DNA of 64,000 nt from Gammaproteobacteria bacterium (lineage in GTDB: Bacteria; Pseudomonadota; Gammaproteobacteria; Eutrophobiales; Eutrophobiaceae): the NCBI GenBank assembly GCA_041600575.1, contig JBFIJV010000001.1, forward strand, positions 33 to 64,032, written 5' to 3'. The position numbers were made by a program, and so were the translations under genes. This document shows, in pieces, positions 17,393-45,614 of the stretch. The notes beneath the pieces were generated by a model, which made no database searches, had not been told where the DNA came from, and saw nothing but the letters and a program-made list of their open reading frames with translations. Each line of letters begins with the position of its first letter. Position 1 is the first letter of the stretch.

Positions 17393-17616
17393 GTGCTTTA
17401 TGTAGAGCAACAGGAGGCAGGGTTCCGCTTTCTGTTATCTCTTCAACAACAGAGGGCAGACTTTGCGCCTCACTTACTTATGATCTTGGTGGCAGCAGTG
17501 GCGGGACAGGAAAGTCAAAGAAATACCTAAAATTACAGCGCAACCTCCAAATTGAAGAACGCGACATACAAGAAATAACAACAATACTTATTGCATCAGG
17601 AATCCTAGACGAATGA
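17389..17616 (+). CDS. Small hypothetical protein (75 aa)
   Basis: Coupled ORF. Confidence 0.35.
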   Translation: MSALCRATGGRVPLSVISSTTEGRLCASLTYDLGGSSGGTGKSKKYLKLQRNLQIEERDIQEITTILIASGILDE

Positions 17617-20600
17617 GCCTAACAAATTGTTTAAAAAGTTTAGACATCAGCAAAGATACTGCTAAAGACGTAAAACGTATTGCACGTTCTTACCGAGAAG
17701 ATGACGGAATGAGTCCCAACGACGCAAGCCTTGCCGCAGCAAAAGACATTCTCTCCGATCTTATTGATTACAGAAATCAAATCTCAGAAGAAATTGAAAG
17801 CAAAGGGCATGAAGCCCCTCGTAGGTCAGAAGCAGCAGTCAAGGCAGACTTGACAGAAGGAGGCAGGACGGCTAAATTAAGCCGTAAGTGGCCTATTGAT
17901 CCCAGTGATGATATCCCTACCGCCTTGGTTAAAACGATTGGCGCGGATATGGATAACTTTGTAACAGAGCTGTCCGACAAGAAGTCGATGGCAGACATAG
18001 CGAACGACGTTGCTAAGCAAGTTAAGGTGCAGGAAGCTGCACCATTACCTAATCCAGACCAGACTCCTCAGACAGCGCAAGCAGCGTTTCTAGAAAAGAG
18101 GCGCAACAAGCCAGATATGCCTTATGAATACTGGCTGACAATGACGGATGAAAACGGCAAAGAGATTGTGGATGATTTGCATGTCCCGATGACGGCGACT
18201 GTTCTTGAGTTCAAGCGCGAAGGTGTTATTGAGATTGACATAAGCTCCTTTAAGAAAGGGAATGGCGGCAATGTCATATATCAAGTTGTTGCTAACTACG
18301 CGCTTAATAACGGTTTAAGATTTCAAGGTGATAGGCAGGGCTTGTCTCCGATAGCACGAATTAGACGTACTGAGCAGATGTTAGCGGCGGCAGCAAAAGC
18401 TGGAACAACTACCCATTTACTGCCGCACCATTGGCAGTATCAAGGCGAAACCGGAACTGAAAATGTTGAAGGTGTTGTTAGGCTAGACTGGAGAAGAGAC
18501 GAAGACAACCACAACTTAAAAGAAATGGTTAACTCGCTGACAGACACATGGCACAATTTAGTGCCTTCACTGAACGAGATGACCTACAATTTTGAAACGG
18601 AGAGGTTTGAGAATGAAGAAGGACAACTTATCGAAGACGGTGTATTCGAAGACGCAGCCGAGTCTGCACGAGCTAATGAACTCCAGAAAGAAGGAGGGGG
18701 AAGCCTTGGTTACACAGATGAACAAGGCATACCAGCAGGGAGCGGCTCGCTTAAAAGAGCTGTATATTTCAAAGCAGCCAGAGGTTTACAAGGACAAGCC
18801 GCTGAGCTACTTTCGGGGCAAGATGATAGGCTCGCCAAATATGTTCGGGGATTTAAAAAGAATACAAAAGACGGAAAAATAAGTTACTCCCGCAAAATCA
18901 CTCCTGAAAAAACAGAAGTCATACCTAACTTCTCTATTATCACTCCATCAATTGTCAGTCAGTCGTCACAAGACGTACAGCAGGTTGATGGTTGGTTGAA
19001 GTATCTGCAGAACAAAGGCGTTAAGAAGGAAGAAATGGAAGCGCTCGGACTGACTGCTGAGGAACTATCGTCACTTTCTTTGGAATTATTTAAAAACAAT
19101 AAAAAATACAAAAACCCAAAGCAACTATCTAAAGAAGATCTGCTTGAGTATATTGACAATCAGTCAAATCAACTCAAATTTATCGAGGAGTTTAGAGTTG
19201 GGAACAGATCTTCTTATTCCAATATGATTCTTCCAGAAGATTACGGTAAAAAAACCGGATATTTTGTCTCTGTGGTTGACTCACCTAAAGCGCCTTGGCA
19301 AAAATTGCCCACTTTTACAGAGCATTTTATTGGCGAAAACGATGATAGTTATAATAATTTTGCTCATTACAGAGCAACAATTAGGGAGGATGCTAACAGC
19401 AAGCGGTTTCTATTAATAGAGGAGCTGCAATCTGACGGACACCAACGCGCACGAAAGAACGGTTATGAGGATAGAGACCTCTCATCGGAAGATGCAGACC
19501 TCACCAGCAAAATGACAGCGGTTGGCGAAAACATACAAGACATTGATGTGTTTCTGGAAGACACGCACAACCAATTAGATTCGCTGATTGATAGCGCTAC
19601 GAATGATTTTGATTTTGAATTAAAAAAAATGTCCCTTAAGTTTGTTTCTGGATTAAAAAAGAATGATAGCTACAACGAAAAGGTTCAGAAAGTATTCAAA
19701 AACAGAAGCCTTCCGGACGACGAAGGGCTGTTTAATTTAATGAAGGAATATCTTGATACCTTAGATAAAGCGACTAAAAAAATTGATGAGGCGTTCAATA
19801 AGGCAGGTATAGACCTAAGAGTTGCAACTTCTAACAACAGCAGATCCATGACCCATAAACCAGAACTATTTGGTTTAATGCCTTTAGAAACAGAAGCCAT
19901 TTTAACCCAAGGCAGTATCTGGGATATAACGTCTCTCACCGAGATATCAAAAGCTATTTCTGGTGCTACTGAGAGCGCTAACTTAAATATGCGCAAAGTT
20001 CCGTATATGCCAATGAAGGTTGGTTGGGAAATGTTTTTGATAAAGAAGGCGATGGTATTTGCCAAGAAAAACGGATTAAAACAAATACGCTTCCCTGCTA
20101 CTTATGAGCAAGTTGATCTCATAGAAAAATGGGGGGGCACCGAACTCCCCGGAATGGAAACTATAGCCAAAAGATACACTGAAAAACTACCCCGACAAAT
20201 AAACAGTCTTATTAAAAAGTATGGAAGCAAGGTTGAAAAAACAGAATTCAAAGTAAAAGAAAAAGACAGTATATTGAAGAAACGTCAGGCTGAAGATATT
20301 ACCTTGATATATCAGAGCGCTGATCCTGTGATAATTAAAGTCCCAATAAGAGCAACAAGTATTATTCATTCAATCGAAGGTGACAGTTTAGTCCCTATGA
20401 CAGTGCAGGAGTATGACGAAACCGAAATTGGAGAAGAGGTTTATGTTGTTGGATATACAACCAAGGATTCTCAAACGAATGGCAGTACATCAAGAGCTAT
20501 AAAAAGGCACTTCTCTAACACCACTACATCAAACAATATACGAGATATTGTCGGTTACGATCTGTATGAGCAAAGCCTCTTCGCAGAAGATAGGAGTAGT

Positions 20601-23423
20601 GCAGAGAATTTAATGGTTCACCTTAAGCGTGACATGGAAGAAGAATATCAGCGGGCACTTGATTTAATAAATAATCCACCAAAGAAAACAGACGAACTAA
20701 ACTCATTCGAGATAACACCTGAGCTTGAAGAGTACATCGACAACATGACGATGTTCTCTCGTAAGATGAATGAAGGAACGTCTTATGACAGGAATAACCA
20801 AGTTGAGCCTGAAGTTTTCTACCACGACACAAGCCAGCCTACTGCATCAGAAAGCGCGTCAATAACTTCACGAGTAAAAGAGTTTATTGATGGCTTCCGC
20901 TACGAAATGCAGGATAAGCATATCTATTTGAAGCGTGCTCAAGAATTAGCTGGCGACGTATCTGAGTCAGAAGATGCTTATGGAGCAGAGTCACTCTGGC
21001 AGGGCAAAGCCGGTGAAGTTATTGGTCAGTTTGGTAAATCACAAGCCGAGCCAATCATGAAGAAGATCGGTGAGACTGGCATGGAACTAGAAGAGGTTGA
21101 GCGTTGGTTGCACGCACGCCACGCTGAAGAAGCTAACCGCTATCTTCGTGGTATAAACCCTAACCGTAACGATAACGATGCATTGTCAGGTATGACTGAC
21201 CAAGAAGCATTGCAAATACTGGCCACTAATCAAGGGAATGAGGCATTACAAGAAGTGGGCAGCATGATTGATAATTTAAACAACAGTCGTCTCGATATGA
21301 TGCTGGAATACGGACTGGTTGATGCAGATTCTGTTGCCGCATGGCGAGCGACTTATGAGCATTACGTTCCATTGCGACGCGAGGAGCAGGAAGATCTGAT
21401 CTCCGCACGTGCATCCGGTTTTAATATTCGTGGCAAAGAAAGTCGTGAGCGTTTAGGTTCCACGCTGCCTGTTACTAATATACTGGCACACACCTTTGCT
21501 CAGTACGAGAACAGCATTGTTCGTGGTGAAAAGAACATTGTTGGTCAGGCGCTGTTTAATTTTGCGCAGGCCAATAACTCTTCTGGCTGGTGGACTATCG
21601 ATGAATTGAAACAGGTCGGCAAAGTTAAAGACGGTGAGGTGCAGTGGTTTAATGATCCGCGTGAGACCGACGAAGAACTGAATGTTAAAATAAACGGCAC
21701 AACCCATCGTATTCGTTTTAACAGGAATAATAAGAGCGCTATTCGCATACTCAAGGCAATGAAAAATCTTGAGAGCAAGGAGATGAATCCATTCATCAAG
21801 ACGTTGCTGGGTATTAACAGGTTCCTGAGTAGCATTAATACATCTTTCTCACCTGAGTTTATTATCTCCAACTTTACGCGTGACTTGCAGACAGCCGGCT
21901 ACAATCTGGGCGACACTGAATTATCCAGTATGGAACTAAGTGTCATGAAAAATGTACCGGGCGCAATTAAAGGCTTGAAACAGAATATTCGTGGTGACAG
22001 GACTGATACCGCGTGGTCTCAGTGGGCAGAGCGATTCCGTTTGGCTGGAGGCAAGACCGGTTGGATAGACAATATGAACAATATTGAAGACCGTCACTCA
22101 AAATTAGAGAAGCAATTACAGCGAATCAGAAAAGGCAAAGCGCCTCGAAGTGTATTTATGTCTTTTATTCACATGGTTGAGGACTACAACTCTATTGCTG
22201 AGAACGCAGTGCGTCTCGCCGCATTTAAGACAGCCGTAGAAAACGGCGTATCAGAGCAAAAAGCAGCGATTTTAGCCAAGAATTTGACCGTAAACTTTAA
22301 TCGCAAGGGAATGTCAGGCTCGACAATGAACGCGCTGTATCTCTTCTATAATGCCTCTATTCAGGGTTCTACGCGTATGCTACAAGCAATGGTCAAATCA
22401 AAGAAAGGCCGTATGTTGGCAGCGGCCACGATAGGTCTCTCAGTGGGCTTGGATATTATGAACCGCGCTATGTCTGGAGACGACGATGATGGTGAAAACA
22501 TCTATGACCAGATACCGGATTACGTGAAAAGCCGTAACTGGATAATAATGGGTGAGAAAGAGCCGATAGTTAAGATCCCATTGCCTTGGGGTTACAACGT
22601 TCTTCATATCATAGGACAACAGATTGGCAAGGGATTCACAGGAAAGGACTTCAATGCGCTGGACTCCACCGGTGTTGTCATGAAAGGCATAATCGATTCG
22701 TTCAACCCGGTAGGTAGCGGCACGTTGTTACAAACCGTATCTCCGACAATTGGTGACCCTGCTGTGATGATAGCTGAAAACAAGAACTGGGCAGGTCAAC
22801 CACTTAAACCAGACCAATTGCCGTTCGGAGTTAATAAACCTGAGTACCAAATGCATTGGCGCAAACACAACGACACTATTATGAAAGACGTGTCGAAGTT
22901 CCTCAACGACTTGTCAGGTGGCGACAGTGTGCGGCCGGGCGCGATAAACATCTCGCCAGAATGGATCGAGGTCTTTAGTGACTTCGCAACAGGTTCTGCT
23001 GGCCGGGTAGTATCAAACACATTTTCAACAGCACGCAAAGCCGTTGCTGGTGAAGAGTTGCCTACTCAGGAAATCCCTTTTATACGCAAAGTGACCGGGT
23101 TTGATTCAGAGCGACAGTTACAGTCTCGCTACTACGAACGCGTTGAGGATATTCAATATCACCGTAAACAGCTTGATGCGGCCAAGGTTAGCAGGGATAA
23201 AGAGGTTTCTAAGCAGTTACTGTCAAATCCACGCACTCAATTACTTAAGCTGGAAAAAGACGTGTCAAAGGCGCTCAAGAAGCTAAGTCAAAACAAACGT
23301 AAGATTGAGCAGTCCAGCCTGTCAGATAAAGACAAAGAGAAGCGTGTCGAAAAAATCGACAGCATAATTCGAATGTACCAAGCGCGATTTAGCCGGCTGT
23401 ACTCTGAACGCGTCAAGTCTTAG
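17613..23423 (+). CDS. Giant protein (1936 aa) of unknown function. Likely a virion-associated or injected protein
   Basis: Uninterrupted 5.8-kb ORF at the distal end of the late operon. No Walker A and no T7/N4-type RNAP motifs found. Confidence 0.6.
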   Translation: MSLTNCLKSLDISKDTAKDVKRIARSYREDDGMSPNDASLAAAKDILSDLIDYRNQISEEIESKGHEAPRRSEAAVKADLTEGGRTAKLSRKWPIDPSDDIPTALVKTIGADMDNFVTELSDKKSMADIANDVAKQVKVQEAAPLPNPDQTPQTAQAAFLEKRRNKPDMPYEYWLTMTDENGKEIVDDLHVPMTATVLEFKREGVIEIDISSFKKGNGGNVIYQVVANYALNNGLRFQGDRQGLSPIARIRRTEQMLAAAAKAGTTTHLLPHHWQYQGETGTENVEGVVRLDWRRDEDNHNLKEMVNSLTDTWHNLVPSLNEMTYNFETERFENEEGQLIEDGVFEDAAESARANELQKEGGGSLGYTDEQGIPAGSGSLKRAVYFKAARGLQGQAAELLSGQDDRLAKYVRGFKKNTKDGKISYSRKITPEKTEVIPNFSIITPSIVSQSSQDVQQVDGWLKYLQNKGVKKEEMEALGLTAEELSSLSLELFKNNKKYKNPKQLSKEDLLEYIDNQSNQLKFIEEFRVGNRSSYSNMILPEDYGKKTGYFVSVVDSPKAPWQKLPTFTEHFIGENDDSYNNFAHYRATIREDANSKRFLLIEELQSDGHQRARKNGYEDRDLSSEDADLTSKMTAVGENIQDIDVFLEDTHNQLDSLIDSATNDFDFELKKMSLKFVSGLKKNDSYNEKVQKVFKNRSLPDDEGLFNLMKEYLDTLDKATKKIDEAFNKAGIDLRVATSNNSRSMTHKPELFGLMPLETEAILTQGSIWDITSLTEISKAISGATESANLNMRKVPYMPMKVGWEMFLIKKAMVFAKKNGLKQIRFPATYEQVDLIEKWGGTELPGMETIAKRYTEKLPRQINSLIKKYGSKVEKTEFKVKEKDSILKKRQAEDITLIYQSADPVIIKVPIRATSIIHSIEGDSLVPMTVQEYDETEIGEEVYVVGYTTKDSQTNGSTSRAIKRHFSNTTTSNNIRDIVGYDLYEQSLFAEDRSSAENLMVHLKRDMEEEYQRALDLINNPPKKTDELNSFEITPELEEYIDNMTMFSRKMNEGTSYDRNNQVEPEVFYHDTSQPTASESASITSRVKEFIDGFRYEMQDKHIYLKRAQELAGDVSESEDAYGAESLWQGKAGEVIGQFGKSQAEPIMKKIGETGMELEEVERWLHARHAEEANRYLRGINPNRNDNDALSGMTDQEALQILATNQGNEALQEVGSMIDNLNNSRLDMMLEYGLVDADSVAAWRATYEHYVPLRREEQEDLISARASGFNIRGKESRERLGSTLPVTNILAHTFAQYENSIVRGEKNIVGQALFNFAQANNSSGWWTIDELKQVGKVKDGEVQWFNDPRETDEELNVKINGTTHRIRFNRNNKSAIRILKAMKNLESKEMNPFIKTLLGINRFLSSINTSFSPEFIISNFTRDLQTAGYNLGDTELSSMELSVMKNVPGAIKGLKQNIRGDRTDTAWSQWAERFRLAGGKTGWIDNMNNIEDRHSKLEKQLQRIRKGKAPRSVFMSFIHMVEDYNSIAENAVRLAAFKTAVENGVSEQKAAILAKNLTVNFNRKGMSGSTMNALYLFYNASIQGSTRMLQAMVKSKKGRMLAAATIGLSVGLDIMNRAMSGDDDDGENIYDQIPDYVKSRNWIIMGEKEPIVKIPLPWGYNVLHIIGQQIGKGFTGKDFNALDSTGVVMKGIIDSFNPVGSGTLLQTVSPTIGDPAVMIAENKNWAGQPLKPDQLPFGVNKPEYQMHWRKHNDTIMKDVSKFLNDLSGGDSVRPGAINISPEWIEVFSDFATGSAGRVVSNTFSTARKAVAGEELPTQEIPFIRKVTGFDSERQLQSRYYERVEDIQYHRKQLDAAKVSRDKEVSKQLLSNPRTQLLKLEKDVSKALKKLSQNKRKIEQSSLSDKDKEKRVEKIDSIIRMYQARFSRLYSERVKS

Positions 23424-35869: not shown

Positions 35870-35925
35870 ATTTATATAATAATATATATAATATATATAC
35901 ATATATATATAGTTATATATAAAAA
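35870..35925. repeat. AT-rich (TA)n/(ATATAT) tract. Candidate DNA-unwinding element or origin
   Basis: 'ataatatatataatatatatacatatatatatagttatatataaaaata' lies 60 bp after the primase gene, in a 255-bp non-coding gap. Confidence 0.4.
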
Positions 35926-36065
35926 TACTCTATTTACCTTGTTTTCACGCTTTCATACTACGACGCTGTTTTTGTACGTTCAGAGGTGTATTTCCTTTTT
36001 AAATCATTAGGTTATCGTGCCACCAAAGAAAAACACGTTTGGTCAACTTTTAGCGAGGATATGAA

Positions 36066-37392: not shown

Positions 37393-37950
37393 ATGAATCC
37401 AGAAAAAGCACTCAGCAGATTGACAGCAAAGACCGGCGGCCTTGATGTGAATGTGCGTTCAACTGACAACACGTCTCTCAGTGGTTCAGATATTGCGTAC
37501 GCCTTGGGCGGTCTTAACCAGTTTGAGTCAAATTTAATATTGTATAAGTATGCGCAGGCTGATGATTCGTTATATGCCAGGCTGTTGCCCGACTGGTACG
37601 AACGTGTGCGTGTTGCGTGTTTGCGCGAGGGCTGGGGTAAGCATAGGAAAATACCTGACAACAGGTTGGTGTTACTTGCTCAAGCAACACTGGATGAATT
37701 TGTGGGTGATAGTCTTTGCAGGAAATGCAATGGAATTGGATCTGTAAGAACCTTAGATAAGATAGAGGTGTGTAGGACATGTGAAGGGAATCGAATACAG
37801 GCGTGGTCGTCTGCGCGTAGAGCGCGAAGTTGTGCAATGGATAGCCATAACTTTCGCAAGCTATGGAAGACACGTTACCGTTCGACGCTTGGCCGTCTAA
37901 TCAATATAGAACAGTACGCGTTATCGGAGGTTAAAAGGAGGCTGGGTTAA
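37393..37950 (+). CDS. Zinc-finger protein. Possible Q-like late antiterminator
   Basis: CRKC-x15-CRTC zinc ribbon in the C-terminal half. Position matches lambdoid Q except for the inserted minus-strand block. Confidence 0.3.
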   Translation: MNPEKALSRLTAKTGGLDVNVRSTDNTSLSGSDIAYALGGLNQFESNLILYKYAQADDSLYARLLPDWYERVRVACLREGWGKHRKIPDNRLVLLAQATLDEFVGDSLCRKCNGIGSVRTLDKIEVCRTCEGNRIQAWSSARRARSCAMDSHNFRKLWKTRYRSTLGRLINIEQYALSEVKRRLG

Positions 37951-38119
37951 CAGGTTGTCAGTTGGTTGCACATTAAAAATATGAACCCTAGAAGATACTT
38001 TTTGATACTTACCGCACGTGACAATAAGTTGGGACAGGGTGGTCATCACTCCACAGCACCACAACCTTCCGAGGAAGACTTTTTTATGCTCTCAAGAATG
38101 AGCCTGTCCCGATTTAATT

Positions 38120-38668
38120 TTACCATATAATTTCAGTGGGTGAGTCATCGCCTTTGCTGGCTTTTAGTTTGTCCGTGACCATACGTGCAACGTCTTGATT
38201 AATTTTATCCATTGCAACAGCTTTGTCAGTGCAATAGAACTCATGCGTAAAGTCGTCACCATCTTTGCGTACACCCTTGTATACTTGCGAAGTCAAGTAA
38301 GTATCTCGCTCAATCGAGACATGAAATACATCAAGCAACAACAGCTCGTGGTGTGTTGACTTAAACACGGTCTTAAAATCCAGAGCTGCCGACATATAAT
38401 TACGGTACATCGTGGGAATTATCCTGCAATACTGCGTTCCAAATAAAGCACCAACACGAACCAATATCTTTCTATGCTTCACGTCTTTTGTGATGCAGTA
38501 TTCTTGCCCGAATCTTACGGGCGAGAACTCAACTGTAAACAAAGCACAACGTGTATTTAAATAATCTTCAAGACGCTGCGTGAAGTCTTTACCGATTCGG
38601 TCGTCACCGCTTCCCAAATAATGCTCCCACTTAGTGGACTCAGACCATCTGGGCTTGTCCAGTCTCAT
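38120..38668 (-). CDS. Hypothetical protein (182 aa). Start placed at the Met preceded by the conserved box
   Basis: Conserved hairpin, box and RBS sit before ATG 38668. The ORF-track start at 38752 would include the regulatory box in its coding region. Confidence 0.5.
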   Translation of the reverse strand: MRLDKPRWSESTKWEHYLGSGDDRIGKDFTQRLEDYLNTRCALFTVEFSPVRFGQEYCITKDVKHRKILVRVGALFGTQYCRIIPTMYRNYMSAALDFKTVFKSTHHELLLLDVFHVSIERDTYLTSQVYKGVRKDGDDFTHEFYCTDKAVAMDKINQDVARMVTDKLKASKGDDSPTEIIW

Positions 38669-38674
38669 AATAAT

Positions 38675-38723
38675 ATCTCCTCTGTTGGTTGTATGATGTA
38701 ATGGGTAACTTAAATACCCATTA
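38675..38723 (-). promoter_or_regulatory. Conserved box plus hairpin, copy 1
   Basis: Minus strand reads hairpin(TAATGGGTA...TACCCATTA)-CATCATACAACCAACAGAGGAGATattattATG. Confidence 0.5.
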
Positions 38724-38758
38724 GGATTGACTCTCTTTCGAGAGCCAATCACTAATGA

Positions 38759-39289
38759 CTACTCAGCTTTTAATTTAGCCAGTAACTTCAAGGTAGGTTT
38801 GCGACACGTCTTACCTTGTGCCGTTCGTGTGTCAACACGTTCCTGTAAGTATGCGATAACCGCTTGCTTACCCACGAAACCCTCGTCAAGCATTTCTTCC
38901 AACCGCTTCGCAGATAGGCCAACGCCCAACTCCACTTCGTCACGCTTAACGTCTTCGCTTGATTTGCTGACAACAGGTTGCTCTGTCTTTTCGATTGCTA
39001 GTTCCATTGTACTAATCTCCTCTTTTGGTTGTGATTGATGTTCGACTGACTGTAACAGTTTGATTGCGCCTTGGGTAATTCCATTGCGCTCACCAACTGA
39101 CAACAGACTGTCAATTGCTTTCCTTAATGGGTAGTCAAGTGGTTTGCAATTGCGGTATTCTGCAATTGGAATCTTCTTGATTGCCACATCAGGATTGACG
39201 ACAACTAAACGTACGAACTTGTGCCCCTTAAAGGCGACACATGTTCGTATGCCATCGTTGAAGTGATAACGACACACTTCGGCTTGCAT
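38759..39289 (-). CDS. Hypothetical protein (176 aa). The in-frame internal start at 39007 carries its own conserved box, so there may be two products
   Basis: The TAATG-like overlap with the upstream gene supports the long form. The full box and RBS before Met 39007 support a nested 82-aa C-terminal product. Confidence 0.45.
   Translation of the reverse strand: MQAEVCRYHFNDGIRTCVAFKGHKFVRLVVVNPDVAIKKIPIAEYRNCKPLDYPLRKAIDSLLSVGERNGITQGAIKLLQSVEHQSQPKEEISTMELAIEKTEQPVVSKSSEDVKRDEVELGVGLSAKRLEEMLDEGFVGKQAVIAYLQERVDTRTAQGKTCRKPTLKLLAKLKAE
39013..39040 (-). promoter_or_regulatory. Conserved box copy 2, internal to ORF 38759-39289
   Basis: CATCAATCACAACCAAAAGAGGAGATtagtacaATG, in frame. Confidence 0.45.
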
Positions 39290-39290
39290 A

Positions 39291-40061
39291 TTACTTGCCT
39301 CCCATGAGTCTAGCAGTTACGTGCTTGGTCGCTGATTTCTTAAATGATGCTTTCAGACCACGCATAGTTTTGCTGCATACAACGTAACGATTAGTGCCAC
39401 CATTGCCGAATATCTTGGCATACACTTTTTCAACGTTATAAGATCTCCCATCACCGGGAATGAGTAACGCTAAGTGAAAATGGTTGTCATCAAGTTTCTT
39501 GCCGCTTACCACAACACGTTGTCCGTTCTTGTATTCAACGCTCAGACCACGCAATTGCTCTTTAAGTTTATGCAAGTTAAAGGTGATGCTTATTCCTTCC
39601 TCGCTAAAACGCACATCATCAATAGACTTGACCGACTGCACATAATTTCCACGATTAATGCATCGGGCAATGATACGGCCAAGGTTATCAACTTCCTTGC
39701 CATAACCGGACTCATCACCCCATTCAGCCTCATAAATAGCATGAGCGTTGCGGCTAATCTTGGCCAAGTATCTGTACATAGTATTTCCCATAAACCGGGG
39801 GAATATATGTTTTCTTCCTCTTGGCTTGCGTGACTCAAGCAAAATACGCGCCCTTCTGGTAATCGCTAAATCATGTAGCGTTGTAATTACACTCCATATC
39901 GACTCTGAATTACAATCCGGTCTGCCACCACGAGACTTCGTTTCATCGAAGTAAGCGATGTAAGTTTCTGGACTGTAATCGTAAGCCGCTTTCAGTAACG
40001 ACTTAGGTAGCGTATTAGCTGCCGGGTTAATAACCATGTCTATAACTTCTGCTCTTTCCAT
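39291..40061 (-). CDS. Protein with a HUH-like 'HFHLAL' motif and downstream Tyr. Possible rolling-circle Rep or relaxase-like nuclease
   Basis: 'NHFHLALLIPG' fits the HUHUUU pattern, followed by 'EKVYAKIF'. Conserved box before ATG 40061. Confidence 0.35.
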   Translation of the reverse strand: MERAEVIDMVINPAANTLPKSLLKAAYDYSPETYIAYFDETKSRGGRPDCNSESIWSVITTLHDLAITRRARILLESRKPRGRKHIFPRFMGNTMYRYLAKISRNAHAIYEAEWGDESGYGKEVDNLGRIIARCINRGNYVQSVKSIDDVRFSEEGISITFNLHKLKEQLRGLSVEYKNGQRVVVSGKKLDDNHFHLALLIPGDGRSYNVEKVYAKIFGNGGTNRYVVCSKTMRGLKASFKKSATKHVTARLMGGK

Positions 40062-40065
40062 AACA

Positions 40066-40152
40066 TAATCTCCTCTGTATTGGTTGTGGATTGTTTGGCG
40101 GTAGAGTACCCACCACACAACGTACTGTGATGTTCGTAGAACTCACATCACA
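40066..40152 (-). promoter_or_regulatory. Conserved box plus hairpin, copy 3
   Basis: hairpin(GTGATGT..ACATCAC)...CAAACAATCCACAACCAATACAGAGGAGATtatgttATG. Confidence 0.5.
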
Positions 40153-40172
40153 ATACGTTGTAGGGTTTGCAC

Positions 40173-40367
40173 TTATGAAAATTCATACTCAGGGTGATTG
40201 ACCTCGACCTTGTAACCAAGGCTCCGGATATGCCCCAGCGCATCTTTTGTGAGCGTCTTCGTGTTAGTTAATCGAGCAAAGACAAACGCATCTTTGTTAT
40301 CGGGGTAAAATCTTGCTTCACCATAAGTGTATTTGACTGTGACCTTGACTGTCATTTCGTTATTCAT
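40173..40367 (-). CDS. Small hypothetical protein (64 aa)
   Basis: Conserved box and hairpin immediately upstream. Confidence 0.45.
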   Translation of the reverse strand: MNNEMTVKVTVKYTYGEARFYPDNKDAFVFARLTNTKTLTKDALGHIRSLGYKVEVNHPEYEFS

Positions 40368-40371
40368 AACG

Positions 40372-40417
40372 TAATCTCCTCATAATAGGTTGGTGGATGT
40401 TGGTAGTAATACCTACC
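40372..40417 (-). promoter_or_regulatory. Conserved box plus hairpin, copy 4
   Basis: hairpin(GGTAG..CTACC)-CAACATCCACCAACCTATTATGAGGAGATtacgttATG. Confidence 0.5.
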
Positions 40418-40462
40418 AGTGAGAGGACTCTTGCGAATCCCCTCTAGCTAGGTACTAGCTTG

Positions 40463-41731
40463 TTACATGTCTACCATGTCGTGAGCATGGATGACTTCAC
40501 CAATATCTGGTGAACCTTGTGGCAACGACTTGTCACCACATGACAACCACACCACCGGATAGTCCGGCACTGTCGAAGGTATGTCATTGCTAGAAACGTA
40601 CAGGTCAGTGATATAGATAAAACAATCAGGCCGAATACCCTTCTTGGCAACATATTCAAACGCCGGTTTCAAACAAGTACCGCCTCGACCACTATACTTA
40701 AAGGTCAAGTCTTCGCCTTGTTCGAACTCGTGAACACAGTCCTCGTTAACATCACCATAATCGTTATAAATAACGGTTATTTTCCGAGGTCGTGTATCGT
40801 CTGCGATGGCCTGTATTTCGGAGGCAGATTGCTGCAACTGCTCGTCAGATACTGAACCACTGGTGTCAACTGCCAGAACTAATTCCCCTGTTTCTTCACC
40901 ATCTGGTGAAGGTAGGAGAACGTCGTCCAGTGAGTTACGGCGATTGAACCGTCTATATGACCAGTCGTCACGTGCTGGCTGCATGAAGTCACGCAGCAGG
41001 CTTCGCCAGTCCTGTTGAGGTTTCAATAGCTCGTCAATTTCTCCAGTGATACCACCTTTGCTATTGCCGGATAAACGTTCAGCCATATCAGCTTGACGAA
41101 TGTCAAGGTCATCAACTGCTTGGACTGGAACGTTACCGTTCAAGTCTTTAGTACCTACGACCTTGCCAGATTTCGGCTTGTCACCGTCGGCAATCTTAGG
41201 AGCGTCTATTACGCCACCGCAACCGCCGGGGTCGCCACCATCTGACAATCCGTTGTCACCAGATTGACTATTGTCACCTCCGCCTTCACTCTCACCTTCA
41301 CCCTCACCCTCACCTTTCGGTGGTTTTTCCATGTGGATGATTTTGTATATGTCCTCAACGGACATACCGCTGAATTTAGGTTCAAGCATGGCGCTAGCTG
41401 GTAAAGCACAACCCGATTTCTTACAAATCGGATTGATTGCGTAGTCACATGCCACGTTCCAATCATGTGGATCACGTTCGCCACGTCTAAGCGTATGCTT
41501 AAATGCTACGTGGGCAATTTCATGAGCCAACACACCAGCAAATTCATCAACCGGTAAATTTGAAACAAATTCACGGTTGTAATAAATCTTTACGCCATCG
41601 GTTGCACATGTATCAAAATCATTACGTTCTACCAAAGGTAGTTTCATAATGAGCGAACCAAAAAACGGCTGGCCTGTCATGAGTCGAATTCGAGCACGTT
41701 CTATATGCTTTTTTAACTCTGAATCATTCAT
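40463..41731 (-). CDS. Zincin metallopeptidase-like plus von Willebrand A (vWA, MIDAS) protein. Partner of the MoxR ATPase
   Basis: 'LAHEIAHVAFKH' HExxH. Gly/Asp/Glu-rich linker. 'LVLAVDTSGSV' DxSxS MIDAS. Start set at the Met preceded by the conserved box. Confidence 0.65.
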   Translation of the reverse strand: MNDSELKKHIERARIRLMTGQPFFGSLIMKLPLVERNDFDTCATDGVKIYYNREFVSNLPVDEFAGVLAHEIAHVAFKHTLRRGERDPHDWNVACDYAINPICKKSGCALPASAMLEPKFSGMSVEDIYKIIHMEKPPKGEGEGEGESEGGGDNSQSGDNGLSDGGDPGGCGGVIDAPKIADGDKPKSGKVVGTKDLNGNVPVQAVDDLDIRQADMAERLSGNSKGGITGEIDELLKPQQDWRSLLRDFMQPARDDWSYRRFNRRNSLDDVLLPSPDGEETGELVLAVDTSGSVSDEQLQQSASEIQAIADDTRPRKITVIYNDYGDVNEDCVHEFEQGEDLTFKYSGRGGTCLKPAFEYVAKKGIRPDCFIYITDLYVSSNDIPSTVPDYPVVWLSCGDKSLPQGSPDIGEVIHAHDMVDM

Positions 41732-41737
41732 TTTGTA

Positions 41738-41782
41738 AATCTCCTCTATGTTGGTCTGTGGATGGTGGTAGAAAATATCTAC
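41738..41782 (-). promoter_or_regulatory. Conserved box plus hairpin, copy 5
   Basis: hairpin(GGTAGATATTTTCTACC)-ACCATCCACAGACCAACATAGAGGAGATttacaaaATG. Confidence 0.5.
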
Positions 41783-41886
41783 CAACATGCTGTCGGGATT
41801 AACTGACAACATGTTGCTAAATACTCGCATTAAAAAGTTGGGGAGAGTACGCAGTCCTAAGACTACGCACCCTCCACCACAGGTGG

Positions 41887-42738
41887 TTACGACTTGATAC
41901 CCAGTTGCTTATCAATATCAGCCAATAATGCTTTAGCATCATTAGCTGCCTCGATTCTGCGTTCTGGATAATTTCGTAATTCGCTTGCTGTACGGCTACC
42001 GATTGACTCCATCAATCGTTTTGCCATATCGTTAAGCAATGGGTCGTTGTTGATATTCAACAAAGGCAGGATTTCAGCCAGTTCCTTGATATTCCCTATA
42101 AGTGAATCTCTAAAAATTGACTCAACGTCCTGCAGTTTATCAACTGCATGACTGACAGCTTTATGTAGACGCTGCCATACCTCGGCCAATGCTGCAGTTT
42201 CTGCAGATTTCACCTTCGACTCAACGCTATCAGCTATTGCTGATATTTCATCGTCATTCAGTGAAACACGAAAGTCACCGCCATCAGGCACTGGCAATAA
42301 TTCAACGTTGAAGTTGAATTTACTGGCAACATCTTGTGGGTAGTCTGCATCTTTATACAGACCGCCTAAGATGCGCTGAGCCATTGACTTCAATTCAGGA
42401 TATTTAGTAATGAAATTACTAACAGCCGAATCAAACTCATATTGCCATTTCCTCATACCGTCCCGGTATGCCTCGAATCCCACAATAGGCAATATTCTTT
42501 GCCCATTGTTGTCCCAAGGCAGTGTGTGCTCATAATGAAAATCACGAACCTGATTGACTACCTGACCGATACGACGAAAGTCGTCACCCTGAATGAGTAG
42601 CTTGTTGAATTTACCAACGTCACCAGTTGCAGAGTTGCTAACAGCAACCTGTTGTGTCGCTTTCTTATCGTATTTACGAGCTGTCCATTGACTAATGGAT
42701 AGCTGAACAAGCATTGCTTTCTCGTTTAATTTTGACAT
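41887..42738 (-). CDS. Hypothetical protein (283 aa) between the MoxR and vWA genes
   Basis: Conserved box and hairpin upstream. Confidence 0.5.
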   Translation of the reverse strand: MSKLNEKAMLVQLSISQWTARKYDKKATQQVAVSNSATGDVGKFNKLLIQGDDFRRIGQVVNQVRDFHYEHTLPWDNNGQRILPIVGFEAYRDGMRKWQYEFDSAVSNFITKYPELKSMAQRILGGLYKDADYPQDVASKFNFNVELLPVPDGGDFRVSLNDDEISAIADSVESKVKSAETAALAEVWQRLHKAVSHAVDKLQDVESIFRDSLIGNIKELAEILPLLNINNDPLLNDMAKRLMESIGSRTASELRNYPERRIEAANDAKALLADIDKQLGIKS

Positions 42739-42742
42739 GTCA

Positions 42743-42791
42743 AAATCTCCTCTATGTTGGTTTGTGGATGGTGATGTATTGAAAATACATC
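42743..42791 (-). promoter_or_regulatory. Conserved box plus hairpin, copy 6
   Basis: hairpin(GATGTATTttcaAATACATC)-ACCATCCACAAACCAACATAGAGGAGATtttgacATG. Confidence 0.5.
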
Positions 42792-42836
42792 GGGCTGCCC
42801 ACTACCTAAGTAGTGAGCAGTATCGATATATTCTCG

Positions 42837-43892
42837 CTAGAGAATTACGTCTTGATTTTCTACACACCAATTGACGTATGCTGTGGACTTAACAAAGTCC
42901 TCATACTGTCCGTTAGCCTTTTGTTTATCGGTCATTGTCTGGACTGAAAACACTTCGAACTCTTTGTCCAATCTTTTCAGGTACTGAATAAATTGGCTGA
43001 AATTGTTCTTGTCAGCGACATTAGCAATAGCTCCAGCTATTGCGTAAAGTGCTCCCATGCTGCCGTCGTCTTCTGGAATCTGAGCACCATTCGGGTCTCT
43101 CGCAATTTCATCGACATTTGGCAGCTTGCCCCAGAGACTAAGAAAAGCAGTTAAATTAACTGCTTGTTCTTCACCGACGCACCCCGATAAAGCCAAGAAT
43201 TGGTCTTTATCATCGTAGCCAAGTCCAAGCTCAGTCCCTGCATAATCCCAGTTTCTGGGATTAGGGTTGACCTTGGCAGACCTGTCGAATTGGCAAAAAG
43301 CAGGACTATTGAAGCGTAAATACGCTACAATCTGTGTTGGTATGTTGTGCTGAATAGCCCAAACACACCAACGGTCTAAGTCAGCATTGACTTCGACCTC
43401 TGATAGTCGATCAGACATTGCATTTAATGTCTTCTCGACACCAGAACCATGCTCGATGCCATTCGTTGCTAAGACAACGAACGTATCTTCTGGTAATCGG
43501 TAGTGACTACCGATACCTCGTTCATTGCTATTACCTAATTGCATTAGCACCTTTTGCATCCCTCGATTGGCCTGACCAAATTCATCTATGAAAAGAATTT
43601 GCCTTGGCTTGCTTGGTAGGATTGCGTTAGCAACCATGTCCACCGTTTTGTTGTCCCTGTCGTAGACAGGTAAAGCAAAATCGGTAGCCTCGTGCTGACT
43701 CGGACGAATCGTAATCACTTCGTCGTAGTGTTTAGAAACACTAGGAAGCGAATCAATCATCGCCGTTTTGCCGACACCCGGTTGCCCTTTCATGACAATC
43801 GTTTTTGCCCAACGCTTCGTCTGGTTGTAACTGTCCATACGAGCACCAAGAAAAGCAGGCATGTCATATATTGATTTAATTATCTGTTGCAT
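42837..43892 (-). CDS. MoxR-family AAA+ ATPase
   Basis: Walker A 'GQPGVGKT' and Walker B 'ILFIDEF'. First gene of the block, behind the conserved box. Confidence 0.7.
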   Translation of the reverse strand: MQQIIKSIYDMPAFLGARMDSYNQTKRWAKTIVMKGQPGVGKTAMIDSLPSVSKHYDEVITIRPSQHEATDFALPVYDRDNKTVDMVANAILPSKPRQILFIDEFGQANRGMQKVLMQLGNSNERGIGSHYRLPEDTFVVLATNGIEHGSGVEKTLNAMSDRLSEVEVNADLDRWCVWAIQHNIPTQIVAYLRFNSPAFCQFDRSAKVNPNPRNWDYAGTELGLGYDDKDQFLALSGCVGEEQAVNLTAFLSLWGKLPNVDEIARDPNGAQIPEDDGSMGALYAIAGAIANVADKNNFSQFIQYLKRLDKEFEVFSVQTMTDKQKANGQYEDFVKSTAYVNWCVENQDVIL

Positions 43893-43898
43893 TTGTGT

Positions 43899-43947
43899 AT
43901 CTCCTCATAATAGGTTGGTGGATAGTGCGAAATACGAATGTATTTCA
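43899..43947 (-). promoter_or_regulatory. Conserved box plus hairpin, copy 7
   Basis: hairpin(GAAATACattcGTATTTC)-GCACTATCCACCAACCTATTATGAGGAGATacacaaATG. Confidence 0.5.
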
Positions 43948-44330
43948 GTAAAGGCAAAAGCGAACTTGCGTTCGCCTTCACCTTTGGTGAAACACACTCA
44001 CCACGCCACAAGGAACACAAAGTGTTCCCTGTGACATAACCATTAAGAGGGAGATTATTTGGTGACAGGTTTACGTTCTAATCAGCCTCTAGCTGGACGC
44101 AGATTTGACCTGTCGAACCCCGACTCTACCGTCCTAATTACTAACGGTAGCCGTTACGCTGTGCCGACTCCGCAAACGAGAACTTCGTTCGCCTTATCTT
44201 TCGTGGCACTGAATGCTTCGCAGCAATCAGCAAGCTGAACCAACAGCTAATCAGTCGTCACCAACTCACTGGTTTCACCAGTTTCGGCAATTTCAGCATC
44301 CTGCTGAGCCGAGTTGGAATTGTGTATCTA

Positions 44331-44391
44331 AGTCCTTAATCTTTTTTTTCCCTTTTTCACTTTGTTCAAAAGGAAAAAAAAGTTAAGGACT
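44331..44391. repeat. Long AT-rich palindrome (about 20-bp arms, 20-nt loop)
   Basis: AGTCCTTAATCTTTTTTTTCC ...loop... GGAAAAAAAAGTTAAGGACT. Confidence 0.6.
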
Positions 44392-44488
44392 AATAGGTTG
44401 GGGAATGATAGTGGAGACAAGTTACACTTGTCAAGGTAGACTTGCAGGCCGTTATTCTCGATTGTACCAATCGAAAGTCTGGCAACGC

Positions 44489-44533
44489 GTTTCACGTGAA
44501 ACCCTTGACACACGCGAGTGATTATGGATAATA
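44489..44533 (+). promoter_or_regulatory. Sigma70-like rightward promoter with an abutting perfect 14-bp palindrome. Candidate late promoter
   Basis: GTTTCACGTGAAAC (44489-44502), TTGACA (44505-10), 17 nt, ATAATA (44528-33). Confidence 0.5.
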
Positions 44534-44562
44534 TCAATAATAGTATTGTAGACCTCCTCAAA

Positions 44563-44595
44563 AGCCAGACTGCTAAAGCAGTCAGGCTTTTTTTA
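44563..44595 (+). terminator. Rho-independent terminator 30-60 nt downstream of the candidate late promoter
   Basis: AGCCAGACTGC-taaa-GCAGTCAGGCT followed by T7. Confidence 0.6.
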
Positions 44596-44697
44596 TGCCC
44601 ATCACAAAGTGATGAACAACTGACAACCGGTTGCTCAACGTTCAAGGTCATAGACCTTGTTTGGTGGGACATACGCACAGCGTGCGTTGGTTTTAAA

Positions 44698-44739
44698 AAC
44701 CTATGGTTATTAAAACACTTGAACTTATAACCTATGGTT
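44698..44739. promoter_or_regulatory. Two copies of the palindromic site AACCTATGGTT, 31 bp apart. The second lies within TTATAACCTATGGTTATAA. Operator-like
   Basis: Direct reading. Lies in the leader upstream of the first late gene. Confidence 0.4.
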
Positions 44740-44954
44740 ATAACAGGGCTGGCATAGCATGTCCTGTGCTGTGTATCTCCTTATAAATCAAGGAGATAGG
44801 GTGGTGCGTACTAGGTTCATTGCGTTCGAGAGTGTCTACACACAGCACGTTTTCGTGTATGCAAACGCGCTCTGAGCGCGGGGGCTAACACCACTGTATA
44901 TATAGAACTCACAAAAAATATTTCACAAAATTTTAAACCTTTGTAAAGGAAAAC

Positions 44955-45614
44955 TTGCACATGGCACTATCTCCATCTGACCAGCGACGACTTGTACGAA
45001 AACTGGAAGGACGATCTCGCGCCGAGAAAGAAGCAATCATTGGCGCTACTTACGAAGCGATGAATAAGGGCATAAAAGACCCGATAATCGCTGGTATCAC
45101 CCGGGCTAAAGAAAAGATTGCGATTGCCGCTGGCTCAAGCCCTGATAATGTAAATTACAATGGTATTCAGTACGGTAACGGGGGATGGAATGTCCCGGTT
45201 AATGTGCCGGGGCGAAGAATTTATGCGTCACAATTACCGGCTGTGTTTGGAAATCTTCCACAATTTAAAAATGGATATTTTGACACGCCGGCAAGCACGC
45301 GTACCGCGTTTGTTCCAAAAAGAACTGAGGCTGATGCATGGGTGCACGGACTCAGACAATATGAAGAAGGACTTAAAAATATCGAAGGGCAATTAGTTCA
45401 AGGCAAAGATGATCAATGGAAGTCAGCACAAAAAGAAATACGACTCGCTGACCTGAGAAAAAACAGCCAGGAACTTTTGTTCAATCAAAAGCCTCGCGGC
45501 TTTCAGCCGCAACAAAAAGGCATGTTCTCTCAATTGAATGGCGGCAATAACCCTATCAATCAAATTAGTCAGGGCTTCGATAAGAAGTTCGACATGGCGA
45601 GCAAGTTACGTTAA
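44955..45614 (+). CDS. Hypothetical protein (219 aa), first gene of the late operon
   Basis: ORF. ATG 44961 is an alternative start. Confidence 0.5.
   Translation: MHMALSPSDQRRLVRKLEGRSRAEKEAIIGATYEAMNKGIKDPIIAGITRAKEKIAIAAGSSPDNVNYNGIQYGNGGWNVPVNVPGRRIYASQLPAVFGNLPQFKNGYFDTPASTRTAFVPKRTEADAWVHGLRQYEEGLKNIEGQLVQGKDDQWKSAQKEIRLADLRKNSQELLFNQKPRGFQPQQKGMFSQLNGGNNPINQISQGFDKKFDMASKLR

Follow-up and report, generated by a model that had tools for sequence, protein, structure and literature searches.

Repeated start-codon cassettes in an accessory operon of a lambda-like phage: most likely open translation starts that mark gene swaps

The 64,000-nucleotide window analysed here (contig JBFIJV010000001.1 of the gammaproteobacterial assembly GCA_041600575.1) is essentially the entire genome of a temperate lambda-like phage, and within it a minus-strand accessory block of seven genes, g1 to g7 in the order of reading (38120-43947), carries a recurrent cassette directly before its start codons. 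In its typical form the cassette consists of a short hairpin, a C/A-rich box that is almost free of G, an A/T-rich pentamer and a strong Shine-Dalgarno (SD) sequence at a nearly fixed distance from an ATG. This unit most likely provides each gene with its own open translation start and marks the places at which genes have been swapped. More specifically we favour, with a probability of somewhat more than one half (roughly 0.55), an arrangement in which the block is expressed as one polycistronic mRNA with standardised, insulated translation-initiation regions, the repeats serving as recombination linkers.

Results

The core of the cassette is the SD sequence GAGGAGAT, which occurs eight times in the 64 kb against an expectation of 1.2, a number reached in none of 100 shuffled sequences. 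Seven of these copies lie on the minus strand of the block (38675-38682, 39015-39022, 40068-40075, 40374-40381, 41739-41746, 42745-42752 and 43899-43906), and the eighth, at 57171, is unrelated. When the pattern is extended to ACCAA-N0-8-GAGGAGAT, the window contains seven matches where 0.01 would be expected, every one of them in the block and none in the other 58 kb, structural and replication genes included; the remaining genes of the window are tightly packed and have varied SD sequences. An earlier note on this DNA had placed seven minus-strand copies just before ATG codons, and such they are: the ATGs served lie at 38668, 39007, 40061, 40367, 41731, 42738 and 43892, and the distance from the end of GAGGAGAT to the ATG is 6-7 nt in all seven, slightly narrower than the 6-8 nt given there. 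Alignment anchored on GAGGAG reveals a near-gapless unit of about 25 nt, ATCCAC-N10-11-GAGGAGAT, with the A/T-rich pentamer between the C/A box and GAGGAG and with a conserved A after GGAG for which pairing with 16S rRNA is not possible; the g1 and g4 copies, described before as nearly identical, agree exactly over 25 nt. The statement in the same note that the motif occurs nowhere else holds for the SD-containing form and fails for the box, since a box-like copy without SD is present at 44391-44413, on the -10/+1 region of the predicted promoter described below.

The cassettes recur in one related phage, a metagenomic genome rebuilt from four contigs (L013, L014, L022 and L023; two ENA assemblies, one of them a crustacean metagenome), which holds its version of the block at the equivalent genome position and is about 70% identical to the window in proteins g1 to g3 and 72% identical in the Q-like protein. 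The gene order of its block is s0-g1-g2-g3-g4*-g5-g6-gX-gY-g7, with eight cassettes, before s0, g1, g2, g3, g4*, g5, gX and gY, and the SD is contained in the motif at a fixed, near-optimal distance from the ATG in 8/8 of these as in 7/7 of ours. The box of the window reads ATCCACnAACC, that of the relative ATCACACCACAAC before s0, g1, g2, g3 and gY and ATCC(G/A)(C/A)CAAC, again nearly without G, before g4*, g5 and gX. Over the 15 copies of the two phages the 15-nt box is made up of 42% A, 44% C, 12% T and 1% G, compared with a G content of 24% in the operon. Paralogous boxes within one genome are more alike than orthologous boxes between the genomes, a pattern that, to judge from the sequences, is one of concerted evolution. 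Among the approximately 150 viral and metagenome loci fetched, and among the matches listed, the multi-copy box was found only in the window and this relative. A megablast search of the block against INPHARED gave no match, tblastn with g3 and the large terminase protein TerL against the phage collection returned only distant phages (<45% identity), and DNA-pattern scans of IMG/VR and JGI metagenomes with the box and other patterns yielded single chance matches or none among the matches listed. GTDB genome scans with g3 and with an invariant 22-mer of the leader found nothing, and protein-based locus searches in IMG/VR found nothing close, or relatives of at most 35% identity with compact versions of the g1-g2-g3 trio.

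When the 6.4-kb mRNA was folded locally with RNAplfold and the unpaired probability of 25-mers computed, the boxes accounted for six of the 11 highest peaks, and all seven stood at or above the 94th percentile, compared with the 68th for the g6 start, which has no box. The prediction places a single-stranded tract beside the SD, flanked by stable structure.

One of the seven copies is located in frame inside a gene. This internal cassette of g6 (39008-39043, minus strand; box 39023-39043, followed by its SD and the ATG at 39007) has no hairpin. The element GAGGAGAT-N5-7-ATGGAACT is conserved inside g6 of both phages, whose g6 proteins are 49% identical, and the C/A box of the window is a 15-nt, five-codon insertion (EHQSQ) with respect to the homologue, both GAGGAGAT and ATGGAACT being conserved. 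In the AlphaFold model of g6 (mean pLDDT, the predicted local confidence, 59, i.e. low to moderate), the region of Met95 is a disordered linker before a three-helix C-terminal domain. The conserved SD and ATG, the insertion of the box and its location in a linker together make an internal start that yields an 82-aa product likely; on this model g6 is likely to be a two-domain protein, with a nested product from Met95 carrying the helical C-terminal domain.

The spacers that bear cassettes are 90-155 nt long and share one order of elements: one or two hairpins of 10-18 bp (A, A2) after the stop codon, a hairpin of 5-8 bp (B) abutting the box, then the C/A box, the A/T pentamer, the SD and the ATG. 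That six of the seven copies have a hairpin directly upstream, of varying sequence and without a U-tract, had been recorded before and is borne out, with stems of 5-8 bp, the one before g5 requiring one G-U pair; the longer hairpin of 10-18 bp that all six also have farther upstream had been missed. All of these elements are on the minus strand, and the SD of each cassette is the copy of GAGGAGAT located above. Cassette 1, before g1 (43893-43946), comprises hairpin B at 43929-43946 and the box at 43907-43928. The g1-g2 spacer (42739-42836) contains hairpin A at 42795-42820, hairpin B at 42773-42791 and the box at 42753-42772, and the g2-g3 spacer (41732-41886) hairpin A at 41842-41875 (15 bp, followed by a T-run), hairpin A2 at 41783-41816, hairpin B at 41768-41782 and the box at 41747-41767. 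In the g3-g4 spacer (40368-40462) hairpin A lies at approximately 40421-40445, hairpin B at 40402-40417 and the box at 40382-40401; in the g4-g5 spacer (40062-40172) hairpin A, of 18 bp, at 40117-40161, hairpin B, with its G-U pair, at 40100-40114 and the box at 40076-40099; and in the g6-g7 spacer (38669-38758) hairpin A at 38725-38750, hairpin B at 38700-38722 and the box at 38683-38699.

The positions of the hairpins are common to the two phages and their sequences are different. Alignment of six spacer pairs between the window and the relative gives 153 consensus pairs, of which 31 are changed on both sides and 17 on one, and none is broken, the latter being partly a product of how the consensus fold is built. 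In hairpin B before g2, for example, the window has GATGTATT/AATACATC where the relative has GATAGATT/AATCTATC. The sense RNA folds more stably than the antisense in 11 of 12 spacers, with z-scores of -4.6 to -6.9, and each sense fold contains 1-7 G-U pairs, as expected of a structure formed in the transcript and not of a DNA cruciform. Taken together, these comparisons argue that the hairpins are selected at the level of the sense RNA. As only two lineages are compared, the counts amount to few independent events, and the covariation, clear for the hairpins, is too thin for finer claims such as the exclusive helices of the g1-g2 spacer. There (42773-42836, minus strand), a 12-bp stem beginning 2 nt past the g1 stop borrows the 5' arm of hairpin B, so that the two helices are mutually exclusive, and both are intact in spite of the substitutions in the relative; the competing helices may constitute a translation- or processing-dependent RNA switch.

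GC-rich stems followed by a U-tract, as in intrinsic terminators, are not characteristic of the spacers, T-runs being found only at the leader hairpin (43960-43975, followed by TTTT) and after hairpin A of the g2-g3 spacer (followed by CCAACTTTTT), where the run is not retained in the relative. Composite helices of 20-23 bp with an internal loop are present in the g1-g2 and g2-g3 spacers and a perfect 18-bp stem in g4-g5, compared with stems of merely 10-14 bp in g3-g4 and g6-g7 and none at the internal g6 copy. An Rfam 15 search gave no gathering-level match in the window, and a permissive search of 37900-45000 returned chance-level miRNA and snoRNA matches (E >= 0.07). An integron attC array was rejected as well: no RYYYAAC or GTTRRRY cores were seen on reading the spacers, the stems are perfect and have no extrahelical bases, and the sole integrase is an ordinary phage tyrosine recombinase 14 kb distant.

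The insertions, deletions and replacements that distinguish the two phages start or stop at cassettes, an observation that refers to this one phage pair. The extra 55-aa gene s0 of the relative is flanked by two direct copies of the box, and exactly that unit is missing in the window. Between g3 and g5, g4 and g4* are unrelated genes set between spacers that are homologous on both sides. In g5 and its counterpart only the C-terminal half is common, with 48% identity, the N-terminal half having been replaced. The relative's gX and gY are inserted right after its conserved g6 cassette, gY being preceded by a cassette that has no hairpin, and the start of its g7 keeps a degraded cassette copy within the end of gY. 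In addition, a spacer of the form TAGTACCTAGCTAGA-hairpin-CACT-GGTAGGTATTAC(C)TACC is found after g3 in the window and after s0 in the relative.

A sigma-70 promoter is predicted for the block at 44405-44434 on the minus strand (TTGACA-18-TATCAT, an 11/12 match and the best in the region), and the relative has TTGACA-17-TATGCT at the equivalent place within otherwise diverged sequence. The promoter scan detected no sigma-70-like promoter in any spacer, its only match near a cassette being a weak one (9/12) at the internal g6 copy. The box-like copy without SD (CACTATCATTCCCCAACCTATTA, 44391-44413, minus strand) overlaps both the -10 element and the transcript start; its alignment with the g1 box has 19 identical bases out of 20 and a single 3-nt gap, and it is the third-best match to that box in the window, after g1 itself and the g4 box, with a score modestly above background (26 vs at most 22). 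In the relative the promoter is followed by CCCCACAAC, which is similar to that phage's own box variant.

Downstream of the promoter lies a structured untranslated leader of about 500 nt (43893-44398, minus strand), in which hairpin follows hairpin; of its 165 predicted pairs, 31 are changed on both sides between the lineages. Its near-invariant core of about 94 nt (44037-44130, minus strand) is approximately 98% identical to the relative, compared with about 70% for the neighbouring proteins. A 1-nt indel just past this core rules out a conserved open reading frame (ORF), and a search for the core in Rfam gave no match; it could be a cis-acting regulatory RNA (perhaps a put-like antiterminator), a protein-binding site or a packaging site. 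Just upstream of cassette 1 there is a conserved terminator-like hairpin (43953-43975, minus strand), GCGAAC-GCAA-GTTCGC followed by TTTTGCC; should it terminate efficiently, the leader might exist as a separate structured RNA of about 440 nt. The ORF at 44328-44678 starts upstream of the predicted promoter and is probably not a gene. A palindrome at 44016-44040, considered as an operator, was dropped because the relative has a different hairpin there, which makes a covarying RNA stem more likely.

Several other familiar elements were considered for the motif and abandoned. Chi sites were dropped with only two copies of GTTGGTGG, on the plus strand, and extended pairing with the 3' tail of 16S rRNA because the AUCCA element lies to the wrong side of the SD and the relative does not have it. 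Neither CsrA, Hfq or cold-shock protein sites nor promoters of alternative sigma factors (sigma-54, -32, -28 and -E) fitted, as judged against their consensus sequences.

The genes of the block, all on the minus strand, are in part recognisable. The product of g1 (42837-43892, 351 aa) is a MoxR-like AAA ATPase (phrog_1297, E = 1e-50), that of g2 (41887-42738, 283 aa) is weakly DUF3150-like and that of g3 (40463-41731, 422 aa) combines a DUF2201 metallopeptidase with a VWA-like domain. For g4 to g7 no family is recognisable, and PADLOC and NCBIfam gave nothing for the block proteins. Gene g4 (40173-40367) encodes a 64-aa ORFan, with an unrelated gene at this position in the relative; g5 (39291-40061, 256 aa), homologous to the relative's gene in its C-terminal half only, has no homologue but itself among 5.8 billion proteins; g6 (38759-39289, 176 aa) has no cassette of its own at its first start, which overlaps the g5 stop (TAATATG); and g7 (38120-38668, 182 aa) shows 30% identity with the gene that ends the block of the relative. 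Sequence searches of the PDB with g5, g6 and g7 gave no match, the AlphaFold models are poor (pLDDT 40 for g7 and 59 for g6), and Foldseek with the g6 model found nothing significant. The g1-g2-g3 trio is also present in a contig of an unrelated P22-like phage and in one resembling an integrative and conjugative element or plasmid, in both cases in compact form and with no such spacers, from which it follows that the cassette architecture is a property of this phage lineage rather than of the gene module. Upstream of both the ATPase and the DUF3150 gene of the trio, an unrelated P22-like contig (L015, 6700-7780) has a similar short unit of CCACTT, a hairpin (GCCG..CGGC) and AAAGGAG; repeated start contexts around this trio may therefore be common.

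Elsewhere the window encodes an integrase, a primase, a helicase, a Cas4-type exonuclease, a CI-like repressor (HTH and S24 peptidase) with a Cro-like gene, a RuvC-like resolvase, a terminase and a portal protein. The accessory block is flanked, as the earlier note had proposed, by the gene of a Q-like antiterminator (37393-37950, phrog_127) and by a late-promoter/terminator pair. The latter (44505-44595, plus strand) consists of a divergent, near-consensus sigma-70 promoter, TTGACA-16-GATAAT (44505-44532), and, about 40 nt on, a strong bidirectional terminator with hairpin and T-run (44568-44583); both are conserved in the relative, and the promoter, back to back with that of the block, is directed toward the terminase genes. 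The arrangement is like that of the Q-dependent late promoter of lambda, PR'/tR', with the difference that here the Q-like gene is separated from the late promoter by the 6-kb block. The suggestion that the block is a module with its own expression logic likewise stands, given its uniform start cassettes, its long structured spacers, its own conserved sigma-70 promoter and its leader of about 500 nt. As to insertion, which the note thought possible, the GC content (44.2% against 44.7%) bears no compositional trace of a recent event, and the relative carries the block in the corresponding place. Two further features of the window deserve mention. A 1936-aa ORF (17613-23423, plus strand), which ends the tail-gene region, contains the large polyvalent protein domains LPD37 and LPD38 and matches giant PHROGs (2800-3900 aa) over their C-terminal 900 aa, and a stretch of about 70 nt of nearly pure A/T with TATATA-type repeats (35870-35940), situated between the gene for the primase and the ORF that follows, may serve as a replication origin or an unwinding element.

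Discussion

In the mechanism that we favour, the sigma-70 RNA polymerase of the host would transcribe the seven-gene operon leftward from 44434-44405 through the leader of about 500 nt. The intercistronic spacers of 90-155 nt would fold into one to three stable hairpins, and the last of these would be followed by a G-free, C/A-rich tract of about 15-20 nt, incapable of local pairing, by the A/T-rich pentamer and by the strong SD GAGGAG(AU), with the AUG 8-9 nt past GAGGAG. Unstructured 5' tracts serve as ribosome standby sites (PMC5934652), and tract and SD together would here form a permanently open landing or standby site, giving each cistron, the internal g6 start included, the same context-independent de novo start of translation. 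The hairpins would hold the rest of the spacer double-stranded, insulating the start and shielding the RNA from nucleases and Rho. Finally, recombination at the cassettes, which are sufficiently alike (up to 25 of 25 nt) to be usable as homology patches, would insert, delete or replace gene cassettes.

Several observations weigh against this proposal. The single-transcript model relies on consensus promoter matches, and the terminator-like hairpin with its U-run between the leader and cassette 1 means that the leader could be a separate RNA, leaving the block with no identified promoter. The greater similarity of copies within a genome than between orthologues is fitted equally well by gene conversion and by co-evolution with a sequence-specific factor. 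The near-gapless geometry of ATCCAC-N10-11-GAGGAGAT and the conserved A that cannot pair with 16S rRNA resemble a protein-binding site, and a model confined to translation has no role for the SD-less box-like copy at the promoter; these three features give scope for processing or a trans-acting factor. The covariation, moreover, comes from two lineages and comprises few independent events.

The alternative that survives best, although we consider it unlikely, is that one trans-acting factor binds at the unit of about 25 nt; this factor, which could be a protein of the phage or of the host or else a small RNA, would switch the translation or stability of all cistrons together. Such a post-transcriptional or transcriptional regulon would account for the near-fixed geometry, for conserved positions beyond those that pair with the anti-SD, for a box that is homogeneous inside each genome and different between the two phages, for the restriction of the motif to one operon and for the SD-less copy at the promoter, and it has a precedent in the start-associated sequences (SAS) of mycobacteriophages, for which control of this kind was proposed but never tested (PMC3203893). 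However, no candidate factor is evident: the block proteins (ATPase, DUF3150-like protein, DUF2201 peptidase/VWA protein and ORFans) have no match to an RNA- or DNA-binding domain, with structure models too poor to help, and the window contains no complementary sequence able to encode an antisense RNA. In addition, orthologous boxes have drifted and kept only their C/A composition, which a compositional requirement explains better.

A broader variant, to which we assign a slightly smaller chance, is lineage-specific post-transcriptional control in which a phage or host factor would read ATCCAC-N11-GAGGAGAT, the SD-less copy included, and the leader with its 94-nt core would be a cis-acting element, for example a put-like antiterminator or a sensor that allows passage of the leader terminator. 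If this were true, the array of accessory genes would have an RNA-based expression module complete in itself, a Gram-negative counterpart of the unexplained SAS and their extended form (ESAS).

The cassettes could also be sites of RNA processing, by RNase III on the composite helices or by RNase E or a phage nuclease in or beside the box, in such a way that upstream mRNAs keep protective 3' hairpins and downstream mRNAs begin with hairpin B or the box. This explanation, improbable as we see it, is compatible with the open translation starts preferred above. The composite helices of 20-23 bp with their internal loop, the perfect 18-bp stem of g4-g5 and the two mutually exclusive helices of the g1-g2 spacer that both survive the relative's substitutions would suit it, and the primary transcript would itself start with a box-like sequence. 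The stems of the other spacers, on the other hand, are at 10-14 bp short for RNase III, whose sites span some two helical turns (20 bp or more) of dsRNA, often interrupted by an internal loop, the gY cassette of the relative and the internal g6 cassette have no hairpin at all, and C/A-rich, U-poor single-stranded tracts are, given the sequence preference of RNase E, poor sites for this enzyme.

More doubtful again is the possibility that the copies are an inert, duplicated ribosome-binding site (RBS) context, whose similarity derives from recent duplication or gene conversion and whose box has no function. The exact identity of the g1 and g4 copies over 25 nt is what such an origin would produce, and repeated extended RBS contexts accompany the same trio in unrelated phages (TTATTAAGGAGAAAC in contig L017, a hairpin with AAAGGAG in L015). 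Yet the avoidance of G (1%) holds over 15 sequence-diverged copies in two lineages, the box has been newly placed in a coding linker before a conserved internal start, and cassettes and spacers are conserved where the flanking genes are unrelated, none of which would be expected of an inert sequence.

The idea, raised in the earlier note, that the cassettes are promoters and terminators for a phage-specific transcription machinery of the T7 type, with the box as promoter, +1 at the G of GAGGAG and the hairpins as terminators, is very improbable: although the geometry is fixed over about 25 nt, the A/T-rich pentamer stands right before GAGGAG, the g2 and g3 copies match the T7 consensus at 11 of 23 positions, hairpin and box follow each other as in the promoter-early stem-loops (PeSLs) of T4-like phages (PMC2839356) and a leader RNA of its own might end at the terminator-like hairpin ahead of cassette 1, all seven copies lie within 5.3 kb of one 6-kb operon, with one inside a gene and none before structural or replication genes, the likeness to 'CATAG' is confined to two of the seven, positions -5 to -1 vary over the 15 copies (ATTAT, ACATA, ATACA, CAAAA, CAACA and others), the spacers contain no sigma-70-type hexamers, and the embedded SD would stand at the extreme 5' end of every transcript. 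That no RNA polymerase gene is recognisable, as the same note had stated, agrees with our PHROGs and Pfam searches, which found no RNA polymerase or sigma domain in ORFs of at least 600 aa (the polyvalent 1936-aa ORF with LPD37 and LPD38 included) or in the scanned early-region ORFs, a scan that left out some smaller ORFs and is not exhaustive for small or novel enzymes. The cassettes are thus probably not phage-polymerase promoters.

Among known systems, the closest descriptive match is provided by the SAS and ESAS of Cluster K mycobacteriophages, described in 2011 (PMC3203893) and with a function still untested in 2025 (PMC12699233), and PeSLs (Arbiol et al. 2010, PMC2839356; Comeau et al. 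2014, PMC4122927) are also among the closest analogues. Like the cassettes of the window, SAS are short asymmetric repeats with an SD core, located a few nucleotides before mostly ATG starts (3-8 nt for SAS), in one orientation and at non-structural genes only, with approximately 10-20 copies per genome listed for both; they too have conserved positions unable to pair with 16S rRNA, an inverted repeat stands directly upstream of about half of the copies, or more, and the element found there varies by sublineage. The two nevertheless differ in several respects. The SAS sequence GGGATAGGAGCCC (up to two mismatches) is not matched by ATCCAC-N10-11-GAGGAGAT, the AGGAG core alone being common, and host phylum and phage group are unrelated. 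The 17-bp arms of ESAS are conserved in sequence and show no covariation, on which ground they were judged to be DNA-binding sites, whereas the hairpins of the window are free in sequence and keep their pairing by compensatory changes and G-U pairs, as expected of RNA structure. The long G-free C/A tract and the confinement to one operon are features of the window cassettes. PeSLs are composite intergenic cassettes as well: a stem-loop, in which G-T pairs occur, is combined with a conserved box, an SD and a start codon, the whole recurs ahead of ORFans within a plastic region, and its copies bound indels and replacements between related phages, here in one phage pair. PeSLs are, however, defined by strong sigma-70 -35 and -10 elements with an upstream AT-rich region, hexamers that the spacers of the window do not have; the window phage is temperate and lambda-like rather than a T4-like myovirus, and evidence of mini-circles is absent here.

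Ribosome standby sites (de Smit and van Duin's model; Sterk et al. 2018, PMC5934652) are similar in that a single-stranded tract lies directly before the SD and beside a stable hairpin. Classical standby sites, however, compensate for a structured RBS, whereas the RBS of the window is itself predicted to be open, and the operon-wide repetition of one sequence family is outside the standby concept. The promoters of T7-group RNA polymerases and the RNase III sites of T7 resemble the cassettes in the length of the unit, about 23-25 nt, in its purine-rich end G(A/G)GAGA and in their intergenic hairpins in a phage polycistronic region. T7-type promoters, however, are highly conserved from -17 to +6, the melting region at -4 to -1 included, and stand before middle and late genes across the genome; here no polymerase gene was found, positions -5 to -1 vary, and the motif is confined to one operon and tied to start codons. 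Most stems of the window are shorter than typical RNase III substrates. With the morons and boundary sequences of lambdoid phages the block shares its position as an accessory module between Q and the late operon and the presence of short conserved sequences at mosaic joints; a moron, in contrast, is normally one gene with its own promoter and terminator, and here an array of 7-10 genes has one promoter and one repeated translation cassette. Since the spacers have no sigma-70 promoter, the sequence is unlike SAS and the hairpins covary, the cassettes are not a member of those families. The interpretation that we prefer joins the ribosome-standby idea (PMC5934652) with the 'mobile regulatory cassette' idea developed for PeSLs (PMC2839356, PMC4122927).

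The cassettes represent an independent example of the unexplained start-associated repeats (SAS/ESAS) in an unrelated temperate phage, probably one that infects Gram-negative hosts, and their anatomy is cleaner than that of SAS/ESAS, with an obligatory G-free tract, covarying RNA hairpins and a clear tie to the turnover of gene cassettes. The arrangement leads to simple, testable predictions of how newly acquired phage genes are supplied with a plug-and-play translation start in an existing operon, and for synthetic operons it would offer a natural insulated RBS part. Upstream, the invariant leader RNA may be a separate and more unusual regulatory element. More generally, the findings suggest a way in which short repeated regulatory cassettes could drive mosaicism beyond T4-like phages.

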